Source: an uncultured Armatimonadetes bacterium
GTDB lineage: Bacteria; Armatimonadota; UBA5829; DTJY01
Direction: 5' to 3'
Assembly (NCBI GenBank): GCA_963717145.1
Contig: OY970325.1
Span: 4,256,001 to 4,320,000, forward strand
DNA length: 64,000 nucleotides
Within the stretch, counting starts at the first letter, position 1. Every line of letters starts with the position of its first letter. The notes below the pieces were generated by a model that saw nothing but the letters and a program-made list of their open reading frames with translations, did not search any database and was not told the DNA's origin. This document shows, piece by piece, positions 10,503 to 19,269 of this stretch. The position numbers and the translations under genes were made by a program.

Positions 10503-10610
10503 CACGTCTGATACCCAAACAACACCACAAACTCATCTTCTTAAGGTATAATGAGCATGGCAATCCCTCGTCGGGGATGCTTTCCGAGAGAGATCAAGCA
10601 GGTGTTCCGC

Positions 10611-13160
10611 ATGAAGTACGCACGAATTATCCTGGCAGCCATGGTCATACTCTGTCTGCCCGTCATAGCTCAGTCGTCGCCTCCACTGCTGTATGACAAC
10701 TTCGACGCCGCGACCGTCGGGACGATCCCGGCCGGATGGAGGGTCGCCAAGACCGTCGCCGGCACGAGCGCCCTCGTGCAGATCGGCACGCCCGCGGGCA
10801 ACAAGTGGCTGGTCATCCATGACGACAACGGCGCGGGGATCATCACCAGCAATACGGTCTCACGGACGGCGTCATTCGCGGCGGTGACGGGCTCGGATCG
10901 CTGCACGGCGCAGTTCGAAGTGATGCTCTCTCAGATCACCGCCGGATTCGGCATGCGGCTCACCAACGGCGACGTCGCGACAACTCTCTCCAACTGCGCG
11001 ACCTCGATCACCTTCGAGGGCAATATCCCATATGCGCCCAACGGGATTCCTGGCGCAATCTCATATCAGACCCAGACCAGCACCTACGCACGCTCGCCGC
11101 TTCTGACGACCTACGCCGCCGACACATGGTACACCGTACGAGTGGAGGCGAACGTCGGCAGCAAGATGTACAAGCTCTTCTTCGGTCCCAGGGGAGGCAC
11201 GCTGGCAGAGATCACCCCGACCGGTGGCGTCCAGTTCCTCGTAGCAGTCTCAGGGTCGCAGGTCAGCCAGATAGCCAACATCTCGTTCTTCACCTCCGTC
11301 AAGGATGGCGACGGACCGGGCGACATGACGATCGACAACGTGGAGGTCGTCCTCGGCGACCCGGAGCCGACCACACTGGTGAACACGATCGCGATGGCCC
11401 GGCTGCTCGACCGCAGTACCAAGATCAGCCTTACGGACAAGCTCGTGACTGCCGGCACCTCGAACGGAGTCTTCTATATCGAAGATGACGGCCCCGGGGT
11501 CAAGCGCGCCGCGGGCATCCGTGTACGATCCGGAACGATCGTGCAAGAGAACGATAAGGTCGATGTCATCGGCCGGATCGCCAATACCTCAGAGGCCAGA
11601 GGAACGTGGCATACGGGTGAGCGGGAGATCATCGCCGAGTCGGTATCGGTCCGGAGCACCGGAAACACGCCCCTGGAACCGTTCCTCATGCGCTGCTCGG
11701 ATGTCGGCGGCGGCTGGTATGGCCCGATGGAGATCACCATCAATGGCTCGGAGCCCGCAATCAAGGCGGTCTGGCCGTTCAACGCCTGGGGTGACAGCGG
11801 CGTTTCATCATGGAACTCCACTTATGGCCCGCTGAACAATACCGGCCTCCTCGTGACGGTGATCGGCAAGGTCACCGATCCGACGGTCTACGACATGTAC
11901 GGCACGAACTATGATTTCTACATCGACGATGGCAGCCTGACGAACGACGGATGGTTCGCCACTGCCACGCCCGAGGACGAAGCATTCAAGCCAAACGGTC
12001 TCCGCGTCCGAATTACCGATCCCTCCATACTAGATGACGTGCTTCCCATCTACCATGGCGATCATGTGAAGATCACCGGCATCGTGGGAGCAATCTCATG
12101 CGAAGACCTCGGCAGGGCGACCGTCCGCAACGTCAGGGTCGTTCGCCCAAGGAAGCCGGAGGACATCGAGATCATCCGCCGGCAGGAGCGATACGTCAAG
12201 TTCGACAAGCAGGGCAACTGCCTCGTCGGTGGCAAGCCGTTCTTCCCGATCGGCATATTCATCTATGCGTGGGATTCGCTCGTCCGGCCGGAGGTCCTCG
12301 CCAAGCAGTTCAACACGGTGATCTATGCCGTCACGCCCGATCAGCTCGACAGCCTGCAGGCGGACGGGCTGATGACGATCCCGTATGCCACGGAGGAGTG
12401 GATCGCGCACAAGGACCATCCCGCGATCCTGGCATGGTACCTCGACGACGAGCCGGAGGGTCACGGGCTTACTCCCGCGTATGAGCGCGACTACTATGAG
12501 CGAACGCGCGCCGCCGATCCCACGAGGCCCGCTGGAACGGCGCACTTCTTGTATGATTCTCTGTGGAACTACCGGTTCTGCGACGACTACACGATGTCGG
12601 ACGTCTACCCGCTTCACCGGATGAACATCTGGTCGATGACCGATCACATCAACCGCCTACACCAGATCCACGGGCAGAACTTCCCGGTGTGGCCGGCGAT
12701 CCAGTCATTCGGCGGCACGGAGGGCTACGGCATCCCCTCTCCGGCCGAGGAGCGCGCGATGACCTACATGGCGCTGGCGGCCAACTCGAAGGCGATCCTG
12801 TACTTCTCGTACTATCCGTCGCTCACGGAAACATGGGCTGAGGTCGGGGTGCTCGTGCAAGAACTCAAGGCGCTGACACCATTCTACTGCCTGCCTTCCA
12901 TCGAAGGCGGTCATGGCAATACGAATAGCTGGATAATGACGCGACTGATACGAAACGGAGCGTCCGGTCTGCTCATCACCGTCAATTACTCGTACTCAGC
13001 CCAGACAGCGACGATCACTCTGCCCGCGGGTGCGCCTTCGACGCTCAATCTGCCGTTGGAAGGCGGAAGCATCCCTGTCACAGGCGGCTCGTTCACGGCG
13101 GACTACACGCCGCTCCAGGTCCACGTCTACCAGTGGGGCCCGATCCCGGCGATGCCGTAG
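10611..13160 (+). CDS. Secreted multidomain protein with C-terminal TIM-barrel glycoside-hydrolase-like domain
   Basis: Signal peptide MKYARIIL; GKPFFPIG, HPAILAWYLDDEP, DVYP motifs; central shared domain (FYIEDD, LNNTGLLV, FYIDDGS). Confidence 0.7.
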   Translation: MKYARIILAAMVILCLPVIAQSSPPLLYDNFDAATVGTIPAGWRVAKTVAGTSALVQIGTPAGNKWLVIHDDNGAGIITSNTVSRTASFAAVTGSDRCTAQFEVMLSQITAGFGMRLTNGDVATTLSNCATSITFEGNIPYAPNGIPGAISYQTQTSTYARSPLLTTYAADTWYTVRVEANVGSKMYKLFFGPRGGTLAEITPTGGVQFLVAVSGSQVSQIANISFFTSVKDGDGPGDMTIDNVEVVLGDPEPTTLVNTIAMARLLDRSTKISLTDKLVTAGTSNGVFYIEDDGPGVKRAAGIRVRSGTIVQENDKVDVIGRIANTSEARGTWHTGEREIIAESVSVRSTGNTPLEPFLMRCSDVGGGWYGPMEITINGSEPAIKAVWPFNAWGDSGVSSWNSTYGPLNNTGLLVTVIGKVTDPTVYDMYGTNYDFYIDDGSLTNDGWFATATPEDEAFKPNGLRVRITDPSILDDVLPIYHGDHVKITGIVGAISCEDLGRATVRNVRVVRPRKPEDIEIIRRQERYVKFDKQGNCLVGGKPFFPIGIFIYAWDSLVRPEVLAKQFNTVIYAVTPDQLDSLQADGLMTIPYATEEWIAHKDHPAILAWYLDDEPEGHGLTPAYERDYYERTRAADPTRPAGTAHFLYDSLWNYRFCDDYTMSDVYPLHRMNIWSMTDHINRLHQIHGQNFPVWPAIQSFGGTEGYGIPSPAEERAMTYMALAANSKAILYFSYYPSLTETWAEVGVLVQELKALTPFYCLPSIEGGHGNTNSWIMTRLIRNGASGLLITVNYSYSAQTATITLPAGAPSTLNLPLEGGSIPVTGGSFTADYTPLQVHVYQWGPIPAMP

Positions 13161-13181
13161 TCCACCTGCACTCCCTCTGCG

Positions 13182-13290
13182 CCCCTCCTTACGAAGGAGG
13201 GGCCGGCCAGCAGGCCGGGGGAGGTTCGCGTGCCGATACCCTGGCAGAAACCCCCTCGGCCCAGAGGCCGGTCCCCCTTCGTAAGGGGGA
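13182..13290. repeat. REP-like palindrome pair at convergent gene ends
   Basis: cccctccttacgaaggagggg ... cccccttcgtaaggggg. Confidence 0.6.
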
Positions 13291-13303
13291 CATCCCGGAT
13301 CGC

Positions 13304-16300
13304 TTATACCGACAGCCCCACGAAGAGCCGGGCGTCGATGCTGGTGAGCGGATCGACCTCTCCATTCGCGGCGGCATCGGCGAAGACGATGCCCGGGTAC
13401 TTCGCCCTCATCGCCCGATCGAGGACGTTGAACCCCTTCGGCTCGGCGTACTCCCGGACTCCGTATGCCCCGCGAAGGGTTTCCAGGGCGATCTCTCCGA
13501 GGCCTTCGCGGGCGCTCGGGACGAGAGCGAACATCTCTTCGGATGTGAGACCTTCCGCCAGGCCATGCCGGATCGGGATGCCGTCCTGCGTGCCGGTCGA
13601 TCCTACGAGCCTGACCAGCCAGCGCATGTTCCCCCGCGCGCGGCTCTTCACCGCGAGCATCTGAGGCCCGAGATCGCAGCTATCGAAGTCGGTCCAGGCC
13701 CCCAGTGCTTCCTCGAGCGCGGCCGAGTACTTCTCCCACTCCTTCGGGTCGCCGCTCTCCGGCATCGCGGGCCGATGGAGGCTCTCCCCGACAAATGGGC
13801 TGAGTGACGCTCCGGACTCCTTGGCTACACGGAGGCCGAGGTCGAGCAGCTTATCGGAGGTTTGGAGCATCCGGTCGATTCCGTCCCTCTCAAGGATATC
13901 GGTTAGTGTGTCGATGATCGACTCGCGGGTGACGTATCCCTCCGGGATGGCGATCTCCACGCCGGCGATCTGCTCGATCTCTCCTAGATCGGTCATGCTC
14001 AGGGCGGCCGAGCCCCCACAGCGCCTCGAAGCGAGGGAAGATCAGCTTCGCCAGGGATGGGTCTCGGCGCAGGTGTCCGGCGATCGAGAGCTTCTCCCCG
14101 GCCTCCTTCTGGCCTGCCTCGGTGAGCGGTAGGAACACCGCAGCATGGTCGCCGTCGAAGTCTCCGTTCACCAGCATGCACGCCAGCGGGTGAAGCCTGA
14201 TCGTGCGGTCGCCGCTTCGTACCGGATGGAACGCCAGGAGCGCGGTCGGCATGAACGTCGGCGAGCGGTTGACAAGCACCCACGACCGGGCCATGGTCGC
14301 GTCCAGGGTCTGAGTCGCTCGTTCGGACCGAGCCTCTACCTCCGACATGTCCATTTCGCGGGCGACGAGCGGTCCGAAGATCGCCCATGCGATATCATCC
14401 GCCAAGCCGACCTGATCGGTCCGCAGACCGACTCCCGGCGAGAGCACGGTTCGCCCGCTGAAGAGGATCGGCTGGTGGAACCGCAGGTTCTCCGGCACGA
14501 GCAGCAGATCGAAGTAAGCCCTGACCGCCGACTCGAGATCGCCGTACGACCTCTGCCTGAGGCTTTCGGGAGCGCCGCTTGAGATCATGCGGGCTATCTT
14601 CGTGTTCGCCTCGACGAGCGTCGCCCATGTAGGAGGGGGTTTCCGGTCTACCCCGACCGTGGGCGCACCGACCTCCTCCAGCATCCTCTCGGGCAGCCAC
14701 GGATGCGGGACCGGGCATGCCAAGTTGAGGACTTCCCCTTCAGGAGAAGCGAACCGGAATGCCAGTCTGCCATCCTCCAGTTGAGTATGGATGCCGCCCG
14801 CTGCCAGACGCTCGGCGACCTCAGTGAAATCCGGGGTGGGGGGACCGGCCTGTTCGATCGGGCCGGACACCACTCGTTCCGCGAACGACTCCGCTCCCTC
14901 GCGTTCAGTGGACCGCGTGTTGAACTGCTCACGGATGTTCTCGAATGCGCCGACATCGCGCATGGCATAGTACTCATTCTCGCCCTGCCTGCACACTGGT
15001 TCGCCGGGCCTGGTTCCGATGAAGAGCTTGCTGTGGGCGAGGTGGACTGTCTTGCCCCAGTAGACATAGCCGACTGTGCTCGGACGATCGAGCTTCCGGC
15101 CGCCTTTGCCAAGCGTCAGAGTCTCCATCCCGCTCTCGGGCAGACCGGCCTTCACGAGCCGTTCCCTGATCTCCTCAGCCTTAGGGGCGTGGAAAGGCGG
15201 GGCAATGAACGGCGTCCCTTCCGCACGAGCGATCCGGCCGGCGACCGCCTCCCGCACGACGCCGAAGATCAGCCGCGTGTGGAGCGCGATGAAGTTGTAG
15301 ACCAGTTCGACCGGCGTGCCGTCGGGCAGATGAGGCATCCCGTCGTCGGGGACGATGCGGCTGATGCAGCCCTTCGCGCCATGCCGGTTGGTGATCTTGT
15401 CGCCGGGCTCGAGCGGCCTGGGGTAGCCGAGACGCTTCGCCGCCGATTCGCTGATGAGGATGCCGTCCTCGAAGGTATCGCGGCCCCAGGAGACGAACGC
15501 GGTGAGGAGGTTTCGCCCGCACCAGAATCCCGGTGCGCTGAACTCGTTGCCGGTCTGAACGAGCGCAGGCTCGGGTCCGGAGCGACCACCCACTGGCGCA
15601 TCATGTTCACGCCCATGAGGATCCGGGTCGAATCATCGTGCTCCAGGAACGGGACCAGAGAGGCGACCATACCCAGAGCGGCTTCCGGCCGATCATCTAC
15701 GATAACCAGTCTGCTATCTCGGATCTCCGCGCCGACCGCGACGGAGAGCACGCGCCCGACGTTGGGGCCTTCCGGCGTCTCGAACGGGCAGACGCGCCCG
15801 AAGTGCGAGGGAGTGATCAGCTTCTCCCGAGTTGGGATGAGCAGCCTGCGGGAGTGGGTCACGGTCGCCAGGCGGTCGGTCTTGTCGAGCCACTGACCGA
15901 TCCCATCCACGGCTTCGGCGACCCAGGTGTCGAGGGGGAGCCACGATCTCATCAGCGCCTGGTCGAAGGTGACGTCCTTTGGGGCCTCGCCAAGGCGCTC
16001 GCCGACGTAGTCGTAGAGCTGTTCGCCGACGCACTTGATATCGGCGGTGTCCAGGTACTCGTTCGACGCGACCGGCAGCACGATCATATGCCCATCGCGG
16101 ATCTGAAAGATGCCCCATTCATCCGGGCGAAGGATCTCATACTCCATCTCGGCATCGCCAACGGTGACCTCCAGCCGGCATGTGTACTCGTCACATTCGG
16201 CCTGGTAGCCGGAGAGCGGCAGGCGGTCAGCCAGCAACTCAGGCAGGCGCTCGTTGATAAACCGGTCATAGGATTCCCTATGCCAGGGTGTAGCAATGTT

Positions 16301-16312
16301 CAATGTCATCAT
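13304..16312 (-). CDS. Miniaturised single-chain RNA polymerase beta-beta' fusion (~1000 aa), split by two 1-nt indels (~15574, ~14008)
   Basis: RpoB motifs in order: THSRR, SHFGRVCPFETPEGPNVG, SLVPFLEHDDSTRILMGVNMMRQ, FEDGILISE, GDKITNRHGAKG, MPHLPDGTPVELV, VGYVYWGKTVHL. Then RpoC motifs: SGRTV, VLVNRSPT, LHPLAC..NGDFDGD, KSRARG, EGL..AREGLGEIALET, AAANGEVDPL. Confidence 0.85.
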
Positions 16313-16887
16313 GATTCCTCCCATTCGCGTTCGAGGTTTCTCCATTCGCGAGCGAGACGCTTTCTGGCATAATGCAGGCGCGATTTGACCGTTCCCTCCG
16401 GCACGCCGAGCGCCTCGGCGACCTCCTGGATCTCCATCTCGAACTCGTGGACCAGCCGAAGCACCTCCCGCTTGTCGGCGGGAAGCTCCTCCACCAGCGC
16501 TCGAAAGAGCCTGTTCCGCTGGGCCAACTCGACCGCTTCTTCCGGACGAAGCGCGTCGGCCTCGTAGTCATGCTCTTCCGCAGAGAATTCCAGGGGCGAT
16601 TCCCTCCTGCGGCGGACGGTTCGGAGGTAGTTCAGCGCCGTGTTCGTGGCAATGCGCAGGATCCAGCCGTTGAGCGACCCTCGTCCGTCCCACTGATCGG
16701 CGTGCGTCCACACTCTCAGCAGGACCTCCTGGGTCAGGTCGCGGGCGGCGTCCGAGTCACGGATGATGTCGCGGAGTCGGAGGGTGATCGCCCTCTCGTA
16801 TCGTGCGGCAAGCGCATCGAACGCCTCGGGGTCACTCCCGGCGATCCGTGACATCAGTTCCGCATCGGACAGATCGTGCATAGCCAT
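16309..16887 (-). CDS. ECF-type RNA polymerase sigma factor
   Basis: Region 2 (DLTQEVLLRVW, WILRIATN) and region 4 (EVAEALGVPEGTVKSRLHYAR). Stop overlaps the next ATG (ATGA). Confidence 0.93.
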   Translation of the reverse strand: MAMHDLSDAELMSRIAGSDPEAFDALAARYERAITLRLRDIIRDSDAARDLTQEVLLRVWTHADQWDGRGSLNGWILRIATNTALNYLRTVRRRRESPLEFSAEEHDYEADALRPEEAVELAQRNRLFRALVEELPADKREVLRLVHEFEMEIQEVAEALGVPEGTVKSRLHYARKRLAREWRNLEREWEES

Positions 16888-16910
16888 GCCTCAAACGTCT
16901 CCCACTGCCA

Positions 16911-16938
16911 ATGACACCGGGGAGCGGGCGGGGGTTCA
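16911..16938 (-). promoter_or_regulatory. Candidate ECF-type promoter
   Basis: tGAAC-N18-GTCa just upstream of the sigma gene; resembles general ECF promoter consensus. Confidence 0.35.
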
Positions 16939-17054
16939 GTACCTGGATGTGATCTGCAGTTGCCGAAAGAGGTCAGGCATGCACCGATCAGTCGCTTTGC
17001 AGAACGGATCCTGCCAGCGACTGTCAGACAGGTCCCATGCGGGCCACACATCGG

Positions 17055-17759
17055 TTAGTCAGCTATGTCAGCCGGTCTGATCGAGCTGAACCTTGATTCA
17101 TCTTGAAGCATTCTGCCGAACGCCTGCATAAAGGTCTTGATACTCTGCACGACTGGCTTATCGTACTCCGTCAGTTCCTCTCTGACCCGTTTGGAAAGAG
17201 AGGAGTGTGGTTTGTAGAGAATATCGTGTTCGATCTCGCGGTAACGGTCAAGAATCCAGGGCACTACCTGGATCTCACAGACACACTGCAGTCCGAATCT
17301 GGGCGGAATTGGAACGCAATACTGAAGCTGATCGACCTCATCCACGTAGGAGCTATAGGGCTTGTTCCCACGGGCCGGTTTATGATCCTCAGTGCAGGAA
17401 GGATATGCCTTCTTGATAACATCATGCACATTCTTCAAGTAGGAGTTTGGGCAGACCTGTACCTTCACTCCCGCCATATCTGTCAAGGAGCCAAACGTGT
17501 AATCATCTAGTCTTTCAGGGTCGAAGAAGTTGCCTTCCTGCCGCTGCTGGAGCTTGGCAGACGCGCTGTCGAATGACTTGACTCTGCCGACAATCTGGAT
17601 GCGTTCAAAGGGCAAGAGCTGCGACCGCAGCCCAAGCAATCTATACTCCAAGGTGGCCTTGACTATGTCAACAGCATTCGCATACATACTGACGTTCGCT
17701 TGGTATTCCATCAGCAGCCTGTTCTGCACCAAGGTTGAAGTATCATCGGCTGTCAACAT
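17055..17759 (-). CDS. RelA/SpoT-like (small alarmone synthetase-like) nucleotidyltransferase, divergent
   Basis: GRVKSFDSASAK, TDMAGVK, CEIQ, EHDILYK; visibly lower GC than flanks. Confidence 0.72.
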   Translation of the reverse strand: MLTADDTSTLVQNRLLMEYQANVSMYANAVDIVKATLEYRLLGLRSQLLPFERIQIVGRVKSFDSASAKLQQRQEGNFFDPERLDDYTFGSLTDMAGVKVQVCPNSYLKNVHDVIKKAYPSCTEDHKPARGNKPYSSYVDEVDQLQYCVPIPPRFGLQCVCEIQVVPWILDRYREIEHDILYKPHSSLSKRVREELTEYDKPVVQSIKTFMQAFGRMLQDESRFSSIRPADIAD

Positions 17760-17763
17760 GCGA

Positions 17764-18018
17764 CTAGGTAGCTTCCGTTAGCAGTTTGCCAAGTTCATTC
17801 TGGAGGGTCAGGGAAGGCGGTCTGTTGAAGTAGAACTCCCAACCATGTTTCCGCTTGGGTGCGAGAACCATGTCCGCGAGCTTGTCTGGATGATCCTCGA
17901 CGTACTCCAAACTGAAGCATTTCATGGTGACGCGGTTGACGAAGACATCCCTGTCGAAGAGGTAGCGGTACCCCTGCTGCTCAAGAAAACGTATAGACTC
18001 GCGTGTTCTCGGATCCAT
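17764..18018 (-). CDS. Small hypothetical protein (candidate antitoxin/partner)
   Basis: 84 aa, RBS GGAGG, ends 4 nt before the RelA/SpoT-like gene. Confidence 0.65.
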   Translation of the reverse strand: MDPRTRESIRFLEQQGYRYLFDRDVFVNRVTMKCFSLEYVEDHPDKLADMVLAPKRKHGWEFYFNRPPSLTLQNELGKLLTEAT

Positions 18019-18129
18019 CTGAATATGCCTCCGTGGACGAGCGGTTCGCCACCATCAACTATGCACGCACCCTATTCTAGCGCAAAAAACCGGAATGATC
18101 AAGTAGAAAGCACCATCCATAGGTGCTTG

Positions 18130-19269
18130 TCAGAGATCGCCCTGCTGGACGGTGACCACATCTTGTCCTCTCAGCGTGACATCATCCAGGTACTCGACGG
18201 CCACTCCCTGCGGCGCGAGCAAGTCGTGCAGCCGGGGAGCGAGTTCGACCATGCCGGGGCGCTCGGTCCAGAAGTGCGTCGCGTCGATCACGTTGATTCC
18301 GAGCGCCTTCGCTTCGAGGAACTGGTGGTGGTTCACGTCGCCGGTGACGTAGACATCCGCGCCCATCGAGTGCGCGAGGCCTATCCGCTTACTGCCTCCA
18401 CCGCCGAGCATCGCGACCCTTTCCACCTTCGACTCCGGGTCGCCCGCCGTGCGCGGGTCCGGGACGCGGAGGACCTCACAGACCATCGAGCAGAACGCCC
18501 CGAATGTCGTCGGCGACTCGAGCCTGCCATACAAGCCGATGCCGTGCACCCGCCCCTCGTTCGCCAGGGGATAGACGTCGTAGGCGACCTCCTCATATGG
18601 GTGGGCGGCGGTCATCGCGGTGATCACGTCATGCAGGCGTTCGTCGGGGACGATCGTCTCGAGCCGGACCTCGGGCGTCTTCTCCAGCTCGCCGACCTTC
18701 CCGACGTATGGTTCCGCGCCCTCAAGCGCCTTGAACGTGCCGGTCCCTGTGGTCTGGAACGTGCAATGCGAGTACTTGCCGATCCAGCCCGCGCCCGCCT
18801 CGGAGATCGCATCCCGGACGGCATCGAGCGCATCCTCAGGGACGAAGGTCACCAGCTTGAACAGCTTGTCCGTCCACGTCGGCAGTAGGACCTTCGTGTC
18901 CACTACTCCCATCTTCTCCGCGAGTGTGTCGTTGATGCCACCATCCGCCGAGTCGAAGTTCGTGTGCATGACATAGAGGCCGATCCCTGTGTTGATGAGC
19001 TGATAGACGAGCGACTGCGGGTACACATCGAGTCGCACGCTCGGCAACGGCTGCCAACTCGGGCTGATGAGCGGATGGTGCGTGATGAGCAGGTCGGCGG
19101 ACCGGCGCGCGCACTCCCGGACGATGCCGGGGGTCACGTCGAGCGAGACGACGATGGTGCGCAGGTCCGCCTCAGGGTCGCCGATCTGAAGGCCGATCGC
19201 GTCGCCCTCCTGAGCATATTTCGGCGGGGCGATCCCCTCGAGTATCGGGATGATGTCTCCCAGCTTCAT
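18130..19269 (-). CDS. Nif3-like dinuclear metal-centre protein (YqfO type with PII-like insert)
   Basis: GLQIGD, LITHHP, MHTNFD, AHPYEEVAYD, DATHFWTE. Confidence 0.93.
   Translation of the reverse strand: MKLGDIIPILEGIAPPKYAQEGDAIGLQIGDPEADLRTIVVSLDVTPGIVRECARRSADLLITHHPLISPSWQPLPSVRLDVYPQSLVYQLINTGIGLYVMHTNFDSADGGINDTLAEKMGVVDTKVLLPTWTDKLFKLVTFVPEDALDAVRDAISEAGAGWIGKYSHCTFQTTGTGTFKALEGAEPYVGKVGELEKTPEVRLETIVPDERLHDVITAMTAAHPYEEVAYDVYPLANEGRVHGIGLYGRLESPTTFGAFCSMVCEVLRVPDPRTAGDPESKVERVAMLGGGGSKRIGLAHSMGADVYVTGDVNHHQFLEAKALGINVIDATHFWTERPGMVELAPRLHDLLAPQGVAVEYLDDVTLRGQDVVTVQQGDL

Follow-up and report, generated by a model that had tools for sequence, protein, structure and literature searches.

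A sigma factor gene paired with a pruned single-chain RNA polymerase in an Armatimonadota genome and its relatives

Locus

In a stretch of 64,000 nucleotides from the genome of an uncultured Armatimonadetes bacterium (assembly GCA_963717145.1, contig OY970325.1, positions 4,256,001 to 4,320,000; hereafter the window, to which positions refer unless stated otherwise), the minus strand carries a gene for a sigma factor of the extracytoplasmic function (ECF) type and, directly downstream of it, a gene for a strongly reduced RNA polymerase (RNAP), in which parts of beta and beta' follow each other in one chain. We refer to this polymerase as the mini-RNAP. In the direction of transcription, the locus comprises the following features:

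16934-16938, minus strand: -35 element TGAAC of the operon promoter, read from the sequence and kept in 69 of 71 related upstream regions
16913-16918, minus strand: -10 element GGTGTC, 15 nucleotides past TGAAC, from sequence reading and promoter alignment
16899-16906, minus strand: block AGTGGGAG, conserved in the family as AGTRGAGG, with constant spacing to the preceding -10 element, from the alignment of promoter sites
16309-16887, minus strand: gene of the ECF-type sigma factor, 192 residues, identified with Pfam and NCBIfam
16317-16321, minus strand: GGAGG ribosome-binding site (RBS) of the polymerase gene, within the codons of the sigma tail (..EWEES), read from the sequence
16309-16312, minus strand: ATGA stop/start overlap of the sigma and polymerase genes, read from the sequence
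15572-16312, minus strand: mini-RNAP piece A (residues 1-247), with the pruned beta N-terminus and the start of the beta barrel, from Pfam Rpb2_3 and homologue alignment
15755-15805, minus strand: fork motif HFGRVCPFETPEGPNVG in piece A, from alignment to intact homologues
15571/15572, minus strand: frame break 1, where the alignment shows that a base present in all homologues is missing (..PDP / EPALVQTG..)
14010-15572, minus strand: mini-RNAP piece B, 521 residues, frame shifted by one base, with the rest of beta (flap deleted) and the beta C-terminus fused to the N-terminal part of beta', from Pfam Rpb2_6 (1.4e-30) and Rpb1_2 (6.2e-15) and PDB alignments
15369-15404, minus strand: GDKITNRHGAKG motif of the beta part, in piece B
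14508-14627, minus strand: clamp-helix hairpin (peptide WATLVEAN...AYFD), from profile alignment and model
14148-14168, minus strand: catalytic NGDFDGD in piece B, aligned with the beta' motif
14009, minus strand: frame break 2, where the alignment shows an additional base that homologues lack (..EALWGL / AALSMTD..)
13304-14008 (codons 13307-14008), minus strand: mini-RNAP piece C, 234 residues and stop, in the frame of piece A, with the middle part of beta' and the C-terminal tail
13460-13576, minus strand: putative bridge helix in piece C, from its position in the model

The sequence confirms the overlap behind a GGAGG RBS that the initial annotation of the window had described: the sigma stop codon TGA (16311-16309) and the polymerase start codon ATG (16312-16310) share bases, with GGAGG (16321-16317) located 4 nucleotides ahead of the ATG. 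Upstream, GAAC (16937-16934) is followed after 18 nucleotides by GTC (16915-16913), and this motif ends 25 nucleotides ahead of the sigma ATG (16887). The mini-RNAP had been taken simply for the next gene; an RNAP fusion gene is indeed present, but it spans three frames, and its two frame breaks had been overlooked.

Anatomy of the mini-RNAP

An alignment with intact homologues places the three pieces one directly after another, and together they make up a pruned fusion of beta and beta' of about 1000 residues in a single chain. Searches with the middle piece found more than 120 intact proteins of 1000 to 1106 residues (E <1e-186), all of which contain the domains Rpb2_6 and Rpb1_2. The NCBIfam models for rpoB, rpoC and rpoBC did not reach their cut-offs (TIGR02013, 165.7 of 801 bits; TIGR02386, 76.6 of 963.5 bits; NF011417, 168.8 of 4632 bits).

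The closest intact homologue, P0001, which shares 80% identity with the middle piece, was modeled with AlphaFold2 from 120 sequences; the model reached a mean predicted local distance difference test score (pLDDT) of 94.1 and a predicted TM-score (pTM) of 0.91. Foldseek searches with this model matched beta and beta' chains of RNAP only. Its residues 1 to about 515 superpose on beta from the N- to the C-terminus (Z ∼30, root mean square deviation 2.5-3 Å), with sequence identities of 29-31% to bacterial and 22-27% to archaeal and eukaryotic chains. Because of this superposition and the higher identity to bacterial chains, the enzyme consists, as judged from sequence and model, of a trimmed bacterial beta followed in the same chain by a trimmed beta'.

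Both catalytic barrels are kept, the beta' barrel with its Mg-binding NGDFDGD motif and the beta barrel with GDK..RHG.KG and the fork ETPEG motif. Across 120 homologues with a mean column identity of 44%, residues D736, G737 and D738, the RHG motif, E181, R239 and R699 do not vary, and conservation of D734 and N732 is 90% or higher. This conservation of the active site points to an active enzyme. The model further contains a 33-residue helix (940-972), which we infer from its position to be the bridge helix. The chain ends at residue 1018, 46 residues past this helix, and the trigger loop is absent.

The clamp helices of beta' dock sigma region 2, and a segment resembling them (WATLVEAN...AYFD) had already been pointed out in the mini-RNAP. 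Their retention is borne out by the model, which has a helical hairpin at residues 577-620 (helices 577-594 and 599-620), and by profile alignment to solved RNAPs: a profile of the N-terminal part of beta', built from 23 loci, aligns contiguously with residues 266-507 of Escherichia coli beta' (E 1.8e-35), and its hairpin segment (profile positions 31-76) is aligned to the clamp helices of beta' from Clostridium and Mycobacterium.

The closest complete relative (L001, 6600-6750) has an insertion of about 42 low-complexity residues in its beta part (about residues 205-250), which is absent from the other homologues.

Frame breaks in the polymerase gene

Taken at face value, both indels would be genuine, the polymerase gene a real pseudogene and the module dead in this genome. 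This would account for the 521 middle codons having left the original frame, which contains stops there, and also for the intactness at both sites of contigs from relatives, which come from three soil-metagenome runs of one study, are about 87-93% identical, carry the extra base behind 15571 and lack the base at 14009; they represent relatives, not the same strain. However, the same single-contig assembly (5.37 Mb) breaks the essential genes rpoB and rpoC far more densely, so that the frame breaks carry little weight. The canonical rpoB and rpoC, located outside the window at 2465600-2474200 of the genome, appear as ten open reading frame (ORF) fragments of 150-470 residues; at the profile level, each gene is divided into at least ten pieces, several of them interrupted by stops, and both genes stay below their family cut-offs. 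The three mini-RNAP pieces, for their part, retain all conserved motifs and are 79-80% identical to the closest homologues, and sigma factor, promoter and RBS are intact. We therefore consider a pseudogene improbable. Since rpoB and rpoC are shattered in the same manner and the contigs of the relatives are intact at exactly the two sites, the most likely source of both frame breaks is an assembly with many indel errors rather than a dead gene. The whole assembly seems to be rich in such errors, and calls of pseudogenes and frameshifts in this genome need caution.

Programmed frameshifting was rejected as an explanation, as homologues read straight through, the two shifts are opposite in sign and the assembly breaks essential genes likewise.

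Between positions 15744 and 15865, metagenome contigs are piled up about 20-fold, with a word depth of about 250-350 versus 10-25 elsewhere. This stretch covers the fork motif, which is common to the canonical rpoB of many organisms at an identity of at least 85%, and the pile-up is not a copy-number signal.

Family and distribution

Relatives of the mini-RNAP occur in 217 of 185,579 species, each scanned with one genome. All counts at the level of loci rest on the best 80 loci of this family scan, which belong to Poribacteria, Latescibacterota, Chloroflexota, Armatimonadota, Planctomycetota and Hydrogenedentota, with one further record labeled ‘Candidatus Moanabacter’. In a sample of 201 genomes from the phylum of the window, 17 contain a mini-RNAP (14 of the 170 high-quality genomes and 0 of the 3 genomes of the same family); it is a patchy accessory gene. 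Homologues with a name at their source are all called ‘hypothetical protein’ except for one, which is named only by its Pfam domains. In the ESM Atlas, the family corresponds to clusters named ‘hypothetical protein’ and ‘DNA-directed RNA polymerase family protein’.

A mobile or viral origin was rejected, given that the plasmids of PLSDB and the phages of INPHARED yielded only canonical rpoB and rpoC at about 27-35% identity, and that IMG/VR contained no full-length member of the family, only partial matches or matches of 25-53% identity. The idea of a defence system was likewise dropped: no model in PADLOC-DB 2.0 matches the polymerase, and for the sigma factor there were only two marginal matches (∼6e-4).

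The Atlas also holds further clusters in which Rpb2_6 and Rpb1_2 are fused, of 1164-1787 residues and mostly named ‘hypothetical protein’, which we regard as leads only, and a 245-kb viral contig of IMG/VR (L122) contains a match of 25% identity across residues 160-970. Both hint at several families of fused polymerases.

The sigma factor and its pairing with the polymerase

The sigma factor matches the Pfam domains Sigma70_r2 (6.3e-13) and Sigma70_r4_2 (1.3e-15), and also Sigma70_r4 and Sigma70_ECF; the scan detected neither region 3 nor region 1. With only regions 2 and 4 in about 190 residues, it has the layout of ECF (group 4) sigma factors. It scores 107.2 bits against the superfamily model TIGR02937 of NCBIfam (cut-off 42.9), and none of the specific NCBIfam sigma families was matched past its cut-off (best score 121.2 versus 236 bits).

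The initial annotation had proposed that this sigma factor is dedicated to the mini-RNAP, to be judged by the conservation of the gene neighborhood across homologues, and the neighborhood speaks strongly in its favor. Four of the 80 loci have no upstream DNA, leaving 76 to be counted, and in 75 of these a sigma factor of the same type lies directly upstream on the same strand. These cognate sigma factors match with E-values of 1e-27 to 1e-98, other ECF sigma factors in the same loci with 1e-10 to 1e-16. In the 201-genome sample of the phylum, all 12 matches to the sigma profile with E <1e-50 adjoin a mini-RNAP, and the ordinary ECF sigma factors of the phylum reach only up to about 1e-46. The single exception among the 76 loci (L036) has the same type of promoter 74 nucleotides before the polymerase gene and no sigma factor; the genome it comes from, a single metagenome-assembled genome, contains a complete module with sigma factor on another contig (L194), and the exception is thus a second, sigma-less copy of the mini-RNAP under the same promoter type.

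Stop and start codons overlap by 4 nucleotides in 20 of the 75 loci, the gap is at most 48 nucleotides in 53, and the GAATGGGAGGA junction recurs in many of them. Translational coupling is common, but not universal, because the gap in Poribacteria measures 64-263 nucleotides.

The C-terminus of the sigma factor is formed by a conserved acidic tail (..EWEE or DWEE; 16312-16326 in the window), which is also present in related loci. It is kept even in Poribacteria, where the gap rules out a role as RBS of the next gene, and may be a contact element at the protein level.

ECF genes commonly adjoin the gene of their cognate anti-sigma factor, although this is not a defining property. Here, as had been noticed, the polymerase gene stands in this place; the neighborhoods contain no conserved anti-sigma factor, nor any other conserved third gene, with no neighbor family common to more than about 11 of the 80 loci. 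In 62 diverse loci, the closest flanking ORFs, 109 in total, are metabolic and housekeeping genes of various kinds, together with three transposases, one PIN-domain and one Uma2-family protein, and none of them encodes an anti-sigma domain.

The operon promoter

The ECF-like GAAC-N18-GTC motif reported upstream of the sigma gene proved to be real. We compared 71 upstream regions, from 70 loci and the window, and found GAAC-N17/18-GTC in 69 of them, across phyla and with N18 in 66; we calculate that chance alone would give about 3 of 71. The motif recurs in the form TGAAC-N15-GGTGTC and is mostly located 33-53 nucleotides ahead of the sigma start. The consensus reads TGAACYTT..CGGTGTC, with AGTRGAGG downstream at a constant spacing. 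With its GAAC-type -35 and GTC-type -10 elements ahead of the sigma gene, the promoter agrees, at the level of sequence, with the pattern of ECF autoregulation. The AGTRGAGG block (AGTGGGAG in the window) is probably the start-site region together with the Shine-Dalgarno sequence of the sigma gene; it holds its distance to the -10 element even where the sigma start lies 76-133 nucleotides further on (L003, L007, L028, L033). The motif is missing from two regions, L030 and L050, the latter having the promoter 4.5 kb further upstream.

Six loci (L003, L004, L007, L028, L033, L039) have 76-133 nucleotides inserted between the promoter block and the start of the sigma gene. The insert of L003 has flanks that seem complementary on inspection by eye, and it may form a leader hairpin.

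We built a position weight matrix (PWM) from 63 unique promoter sites, for which the chance level in the genome of the window is about 23 bits. The promoter of the operon itself is the top match genome-wide, with 24.8 bits.

A self-activating module and its alternatives

On balance, we lean towards the view that sigma factor and mini-RNAP form a self-contained, self-activating holoenzyme module. The ECF-type sigma factor would be produced together with a single-chain polymerase of about 1000 residues, in which beta and beta' are arranged end to end and cut down to what appear to be the two catalytic barrels, the fork, the bridge helix, the clamp and the clamp helices. Region 2 of the sigma factor would dock on the retained clamp helices, and the resulting mini-holoenzyme could open ECF-type promoters, including its own TGAAC-N15-GGTGTC; by firing this promoter, it would generate positive feedback. 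The initial annotation had offered two alternatives, a private two-gene transcription system and an RNAP-mimicking decoy acting as anti-sigma factor. The former fits better, given that 120 homologues show little or no variation in the catalytic residues, but it is qualified by a weakly predicted binding and the deletion of the flap.

Several observations weigh against this module. The beta flap, the usual anchor of sigma region 4, is deleted in the mini-RNAP: between ILISE and PGDK, 4 residues replace about 130 (query residues 66-70 take the place of beta 797-929). The promoter retains ordinary ECF geometry, which fits the core RNAP of the host as its user. Complex prediction, which had been suggested as a check, points both ways. 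With the window's own sigma factor and pieces A and B as input, it gave a score of 0.50 (runs 0.50, 0.53 and 0.30) versus 0.00 for the best control, with a partner pLDDT of 66 and no contacts returned. In the calibration of the tool, the mark was reached by 58 of 80 solved complexes and by 2 of 110 mismatched pairs, and the range up to 0.60 contains 7 of the 80 solved complexes and both mismatches that passed; by this calibration, the score is weak, and it may reflect a likeness to solved sigma-RNAP structures. Physical binding of sigma factor and mini-RNAP thus has weak support from prediction and is otherwise inferred. The distance matrices of the two proteins are correlated (Mantel r 0.758, n=51; reached by 0 of 2000 permutations), which indicates joint inheritance rather than binding and is expected from shared genome history alone.

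The searches for further targets weigh in the same direction. Apart from the operon promoter, no site in the genome of the window exceeded about 23 bits, the chance level, in the PWM scan. The next match, with 22.0 bits, falls within an opposite-strand ORF, and ten matches with 19.9 bits lie antisense within an IS3-like transposase gene present in ten identical copies (e.g. at 4172952 of the genome), which we attribute to chance multiplied by transposition. No further promoter of this type was found in 1.03 Mb of related loci besides those of L036 and L050, and in five complete genomes the pattern occurs 1-4 times, equal to the 0-6 occurrences of reversed-pattern controls; two identical matches in one of these genomes are antisense inside paralogous genes. 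By sequence, the only nameable target of the promoter type is the module itself.

The main alternative is that the sigma factor serves the host core RNAP only. Sigma factor and promoter would then be a portable self-activating switch that moves with the mini-RNAP, and the latter would act without sigma, through another mode of initiation or an unknown factor. The beta flap normally holds sigma region 4 at the distance of the -35 element. Because the mini-RNAP lacks the flap, the host core stays open as the partner of the sigma factor; the promoter shows canonical -35/-10 geometry, yet the part that would set this geometry is missing from the mini-RNAP. Furthermore, the sigma factor is an ordinary ECF by domain content, generic ECF sigma factors of the phylum come as close as about 1e-46 on its profile, and YonO, another single-chain two-barrel RNAP, has no known sigma factor (PMC5467207). 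Against this, the mini-RNAP has kept the clamp helices though it has shed most other accessory parts, the frequent overlap or near-abutment of the two genes suggests joint production, and the complex prediction lends weak support to binding, with a score above its best control. In addition, high-scoring sigma factors were not found without the polymerase in the 201-genome sample. We consider this alternative rather unlikely.

The weakest reading of the pair is the decoy, an RNAP mimic that traps the sigma factor on its clamp helices and, as a non-transcribing anti-sigma factor or buffer, limits the feedback: although the mini-RNAP occupies the usual anti-sigma position, with no other anti-sigma candidate conserved nearby, retains the clamp helices and comes without a detected regulon, we hold a decoy to be very improbable, because a sigma trap needs no conserved catalytic center, whereas the Asp triad and the active-site residues of beta vary little or not at all among 120 homologues, the fold is conserved and confidently modeled in its entirety, with both barrels and bridge helix over about 1000 residues, far beyond the needs of a trap, and Pfam finds only RNAP domains and no anti-sigma domain in the three pieces.

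Other features of the window

Just upstream of the sigma promoter, an ORF of 234 residues (17055-17759, minus strand) has a weak match to RelA/SpoT-type nucleotidyltransferases (E 1.2e-5, 26.0 bits versus a cut-off of 27), and an 84-residue ORF at 17764-18018 has no family match. Neither was among the conserved neighbors when the flanking ORFs of the 80 loci were clustered. Convergent with the polymerase gene, an ORF of 869 residues (10551-13160, plus strand) matches no Pfam or NCBIfam family. An Rfam scan of 12800-18200 with E-values up to 0.1 yielded no family, and scans of 13000-17200 yielded no intrinsic terminator and, for sigma-70-type promoters, one irrelevant promoter-like site on the plus strand.

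Significance and comparison with known systems

Textbook bacterial transcription relies on one five-subunit core. It is conceivable, though we propose it tentatively, that several phyla own a second, orthogonal RNAP, a sigma-programmed single chain of a third of the cellular core, which switches itself on by positive feedback. If so, it would be the smallest natural sigma-dependent RNAP, and, lacking flap and trigger loop, it could transcribe while inhibitors or phage factors aimed at these parts block the main enzyme. A chromosomal, sigma-dependent single chain of about 110 kDa would show how far an RNAP can be pruned and still initiate, and would bear on the purpose of the parts removed, flap and trigger loop among them. 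It would also provide synthetic biology with a natural orthogonal triplet of sigma factor, polymerase and promoter, and raise the question of what a second polymerase does in little-studied phyla. As promoter, sigma factor and polymerase are all defined in sequence, the proposal is testable in vitro with three synthetic parts.

The literature we searched contained no description of the sigma/mini-RNAP pair or of the polymerase family. The main text of the ECF classification paper (PMC7826278) has 0 occurrences of Rpb1, Rpb2 and three other subunit terms; the gene contexts of its groups are given in supplements, which lay outside this search.

Compared with canonical rpoB and rpoC and an ECF sigma factor, the module shows homology to both subunits in sequence and fold, the catalytic motifs, a bridge helix, the clamp helices, a sigma factor with regions 2 and 4 and a promoter of the GAAC/GTC type. 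The canonical core, however, has about 2700 residues in two chains, the mini-RNAP about 1000 in one, with about 515 of the some 1150-1340 residues of beta kept and with neither flap nor trigger loop; it is a patchy accessory gene and scores below all rpoB and rpoC family cut-offs. Full-length fusions of beta and beta' are known from Helicobacter and Wolbachia. These (NF011417 and NF007172, with about 2840-2890 positions) have the same order of beta before beta', but are the only, full-size polymerase of the cell, whereas the mini-RNAP has a third of their size and occurs beside separate rpoB and rpoC.

Among reduced polymerases, Orf6 of the yeast cytoplasmic killer plasmid pGKL2 is a fusion of Rpb2 and Rpb1 of 982 residues with about half of the sequence deleted (PMC2919709). 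By its description, rather than by sequence comparison, it resembles the mini-RNAP in joining the second-largest and largest subunits in about 1000 residues; it differs in its eukaryotic-type origin, its location on a linear plasmid and the lack of a sigma factor. YonO of the Bacillus prophage SPbeta is a single chain of about 100 kDa, which has no homology to the trigger loop and is still an efficient RNAP (PMC5467207). Like the RNAPs of crAss-like phages and of phage P23-45, it shares the single-chain two-barrel architecture, but these enzymes are encoded by phages and only remotely similar to cellular RNAP. The mini-RNAP, in contrast, is about 30% identical to bacterial beta and beta', has housekeeping flanks and a sigma partner, and has no member in INPHARED, PLSDB or IMG/VR. 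The non-virion RNAPs of the jumbo phages phiKZ and AR9 are also reported to combine a reduced set of beta and beta' with a dedicated promoter-specificity subunit, a sigma-like fifth subunit; they differ in their split subunits, in a partner that is not a recognizable ECF sigma factor and in their location in a phage genome. What sets the pair described here apart from each of the systems compared is the combination of a bacterial chromosome, clear bacterial beta/beta' ancestry and a dedicated ECF sigma factor.

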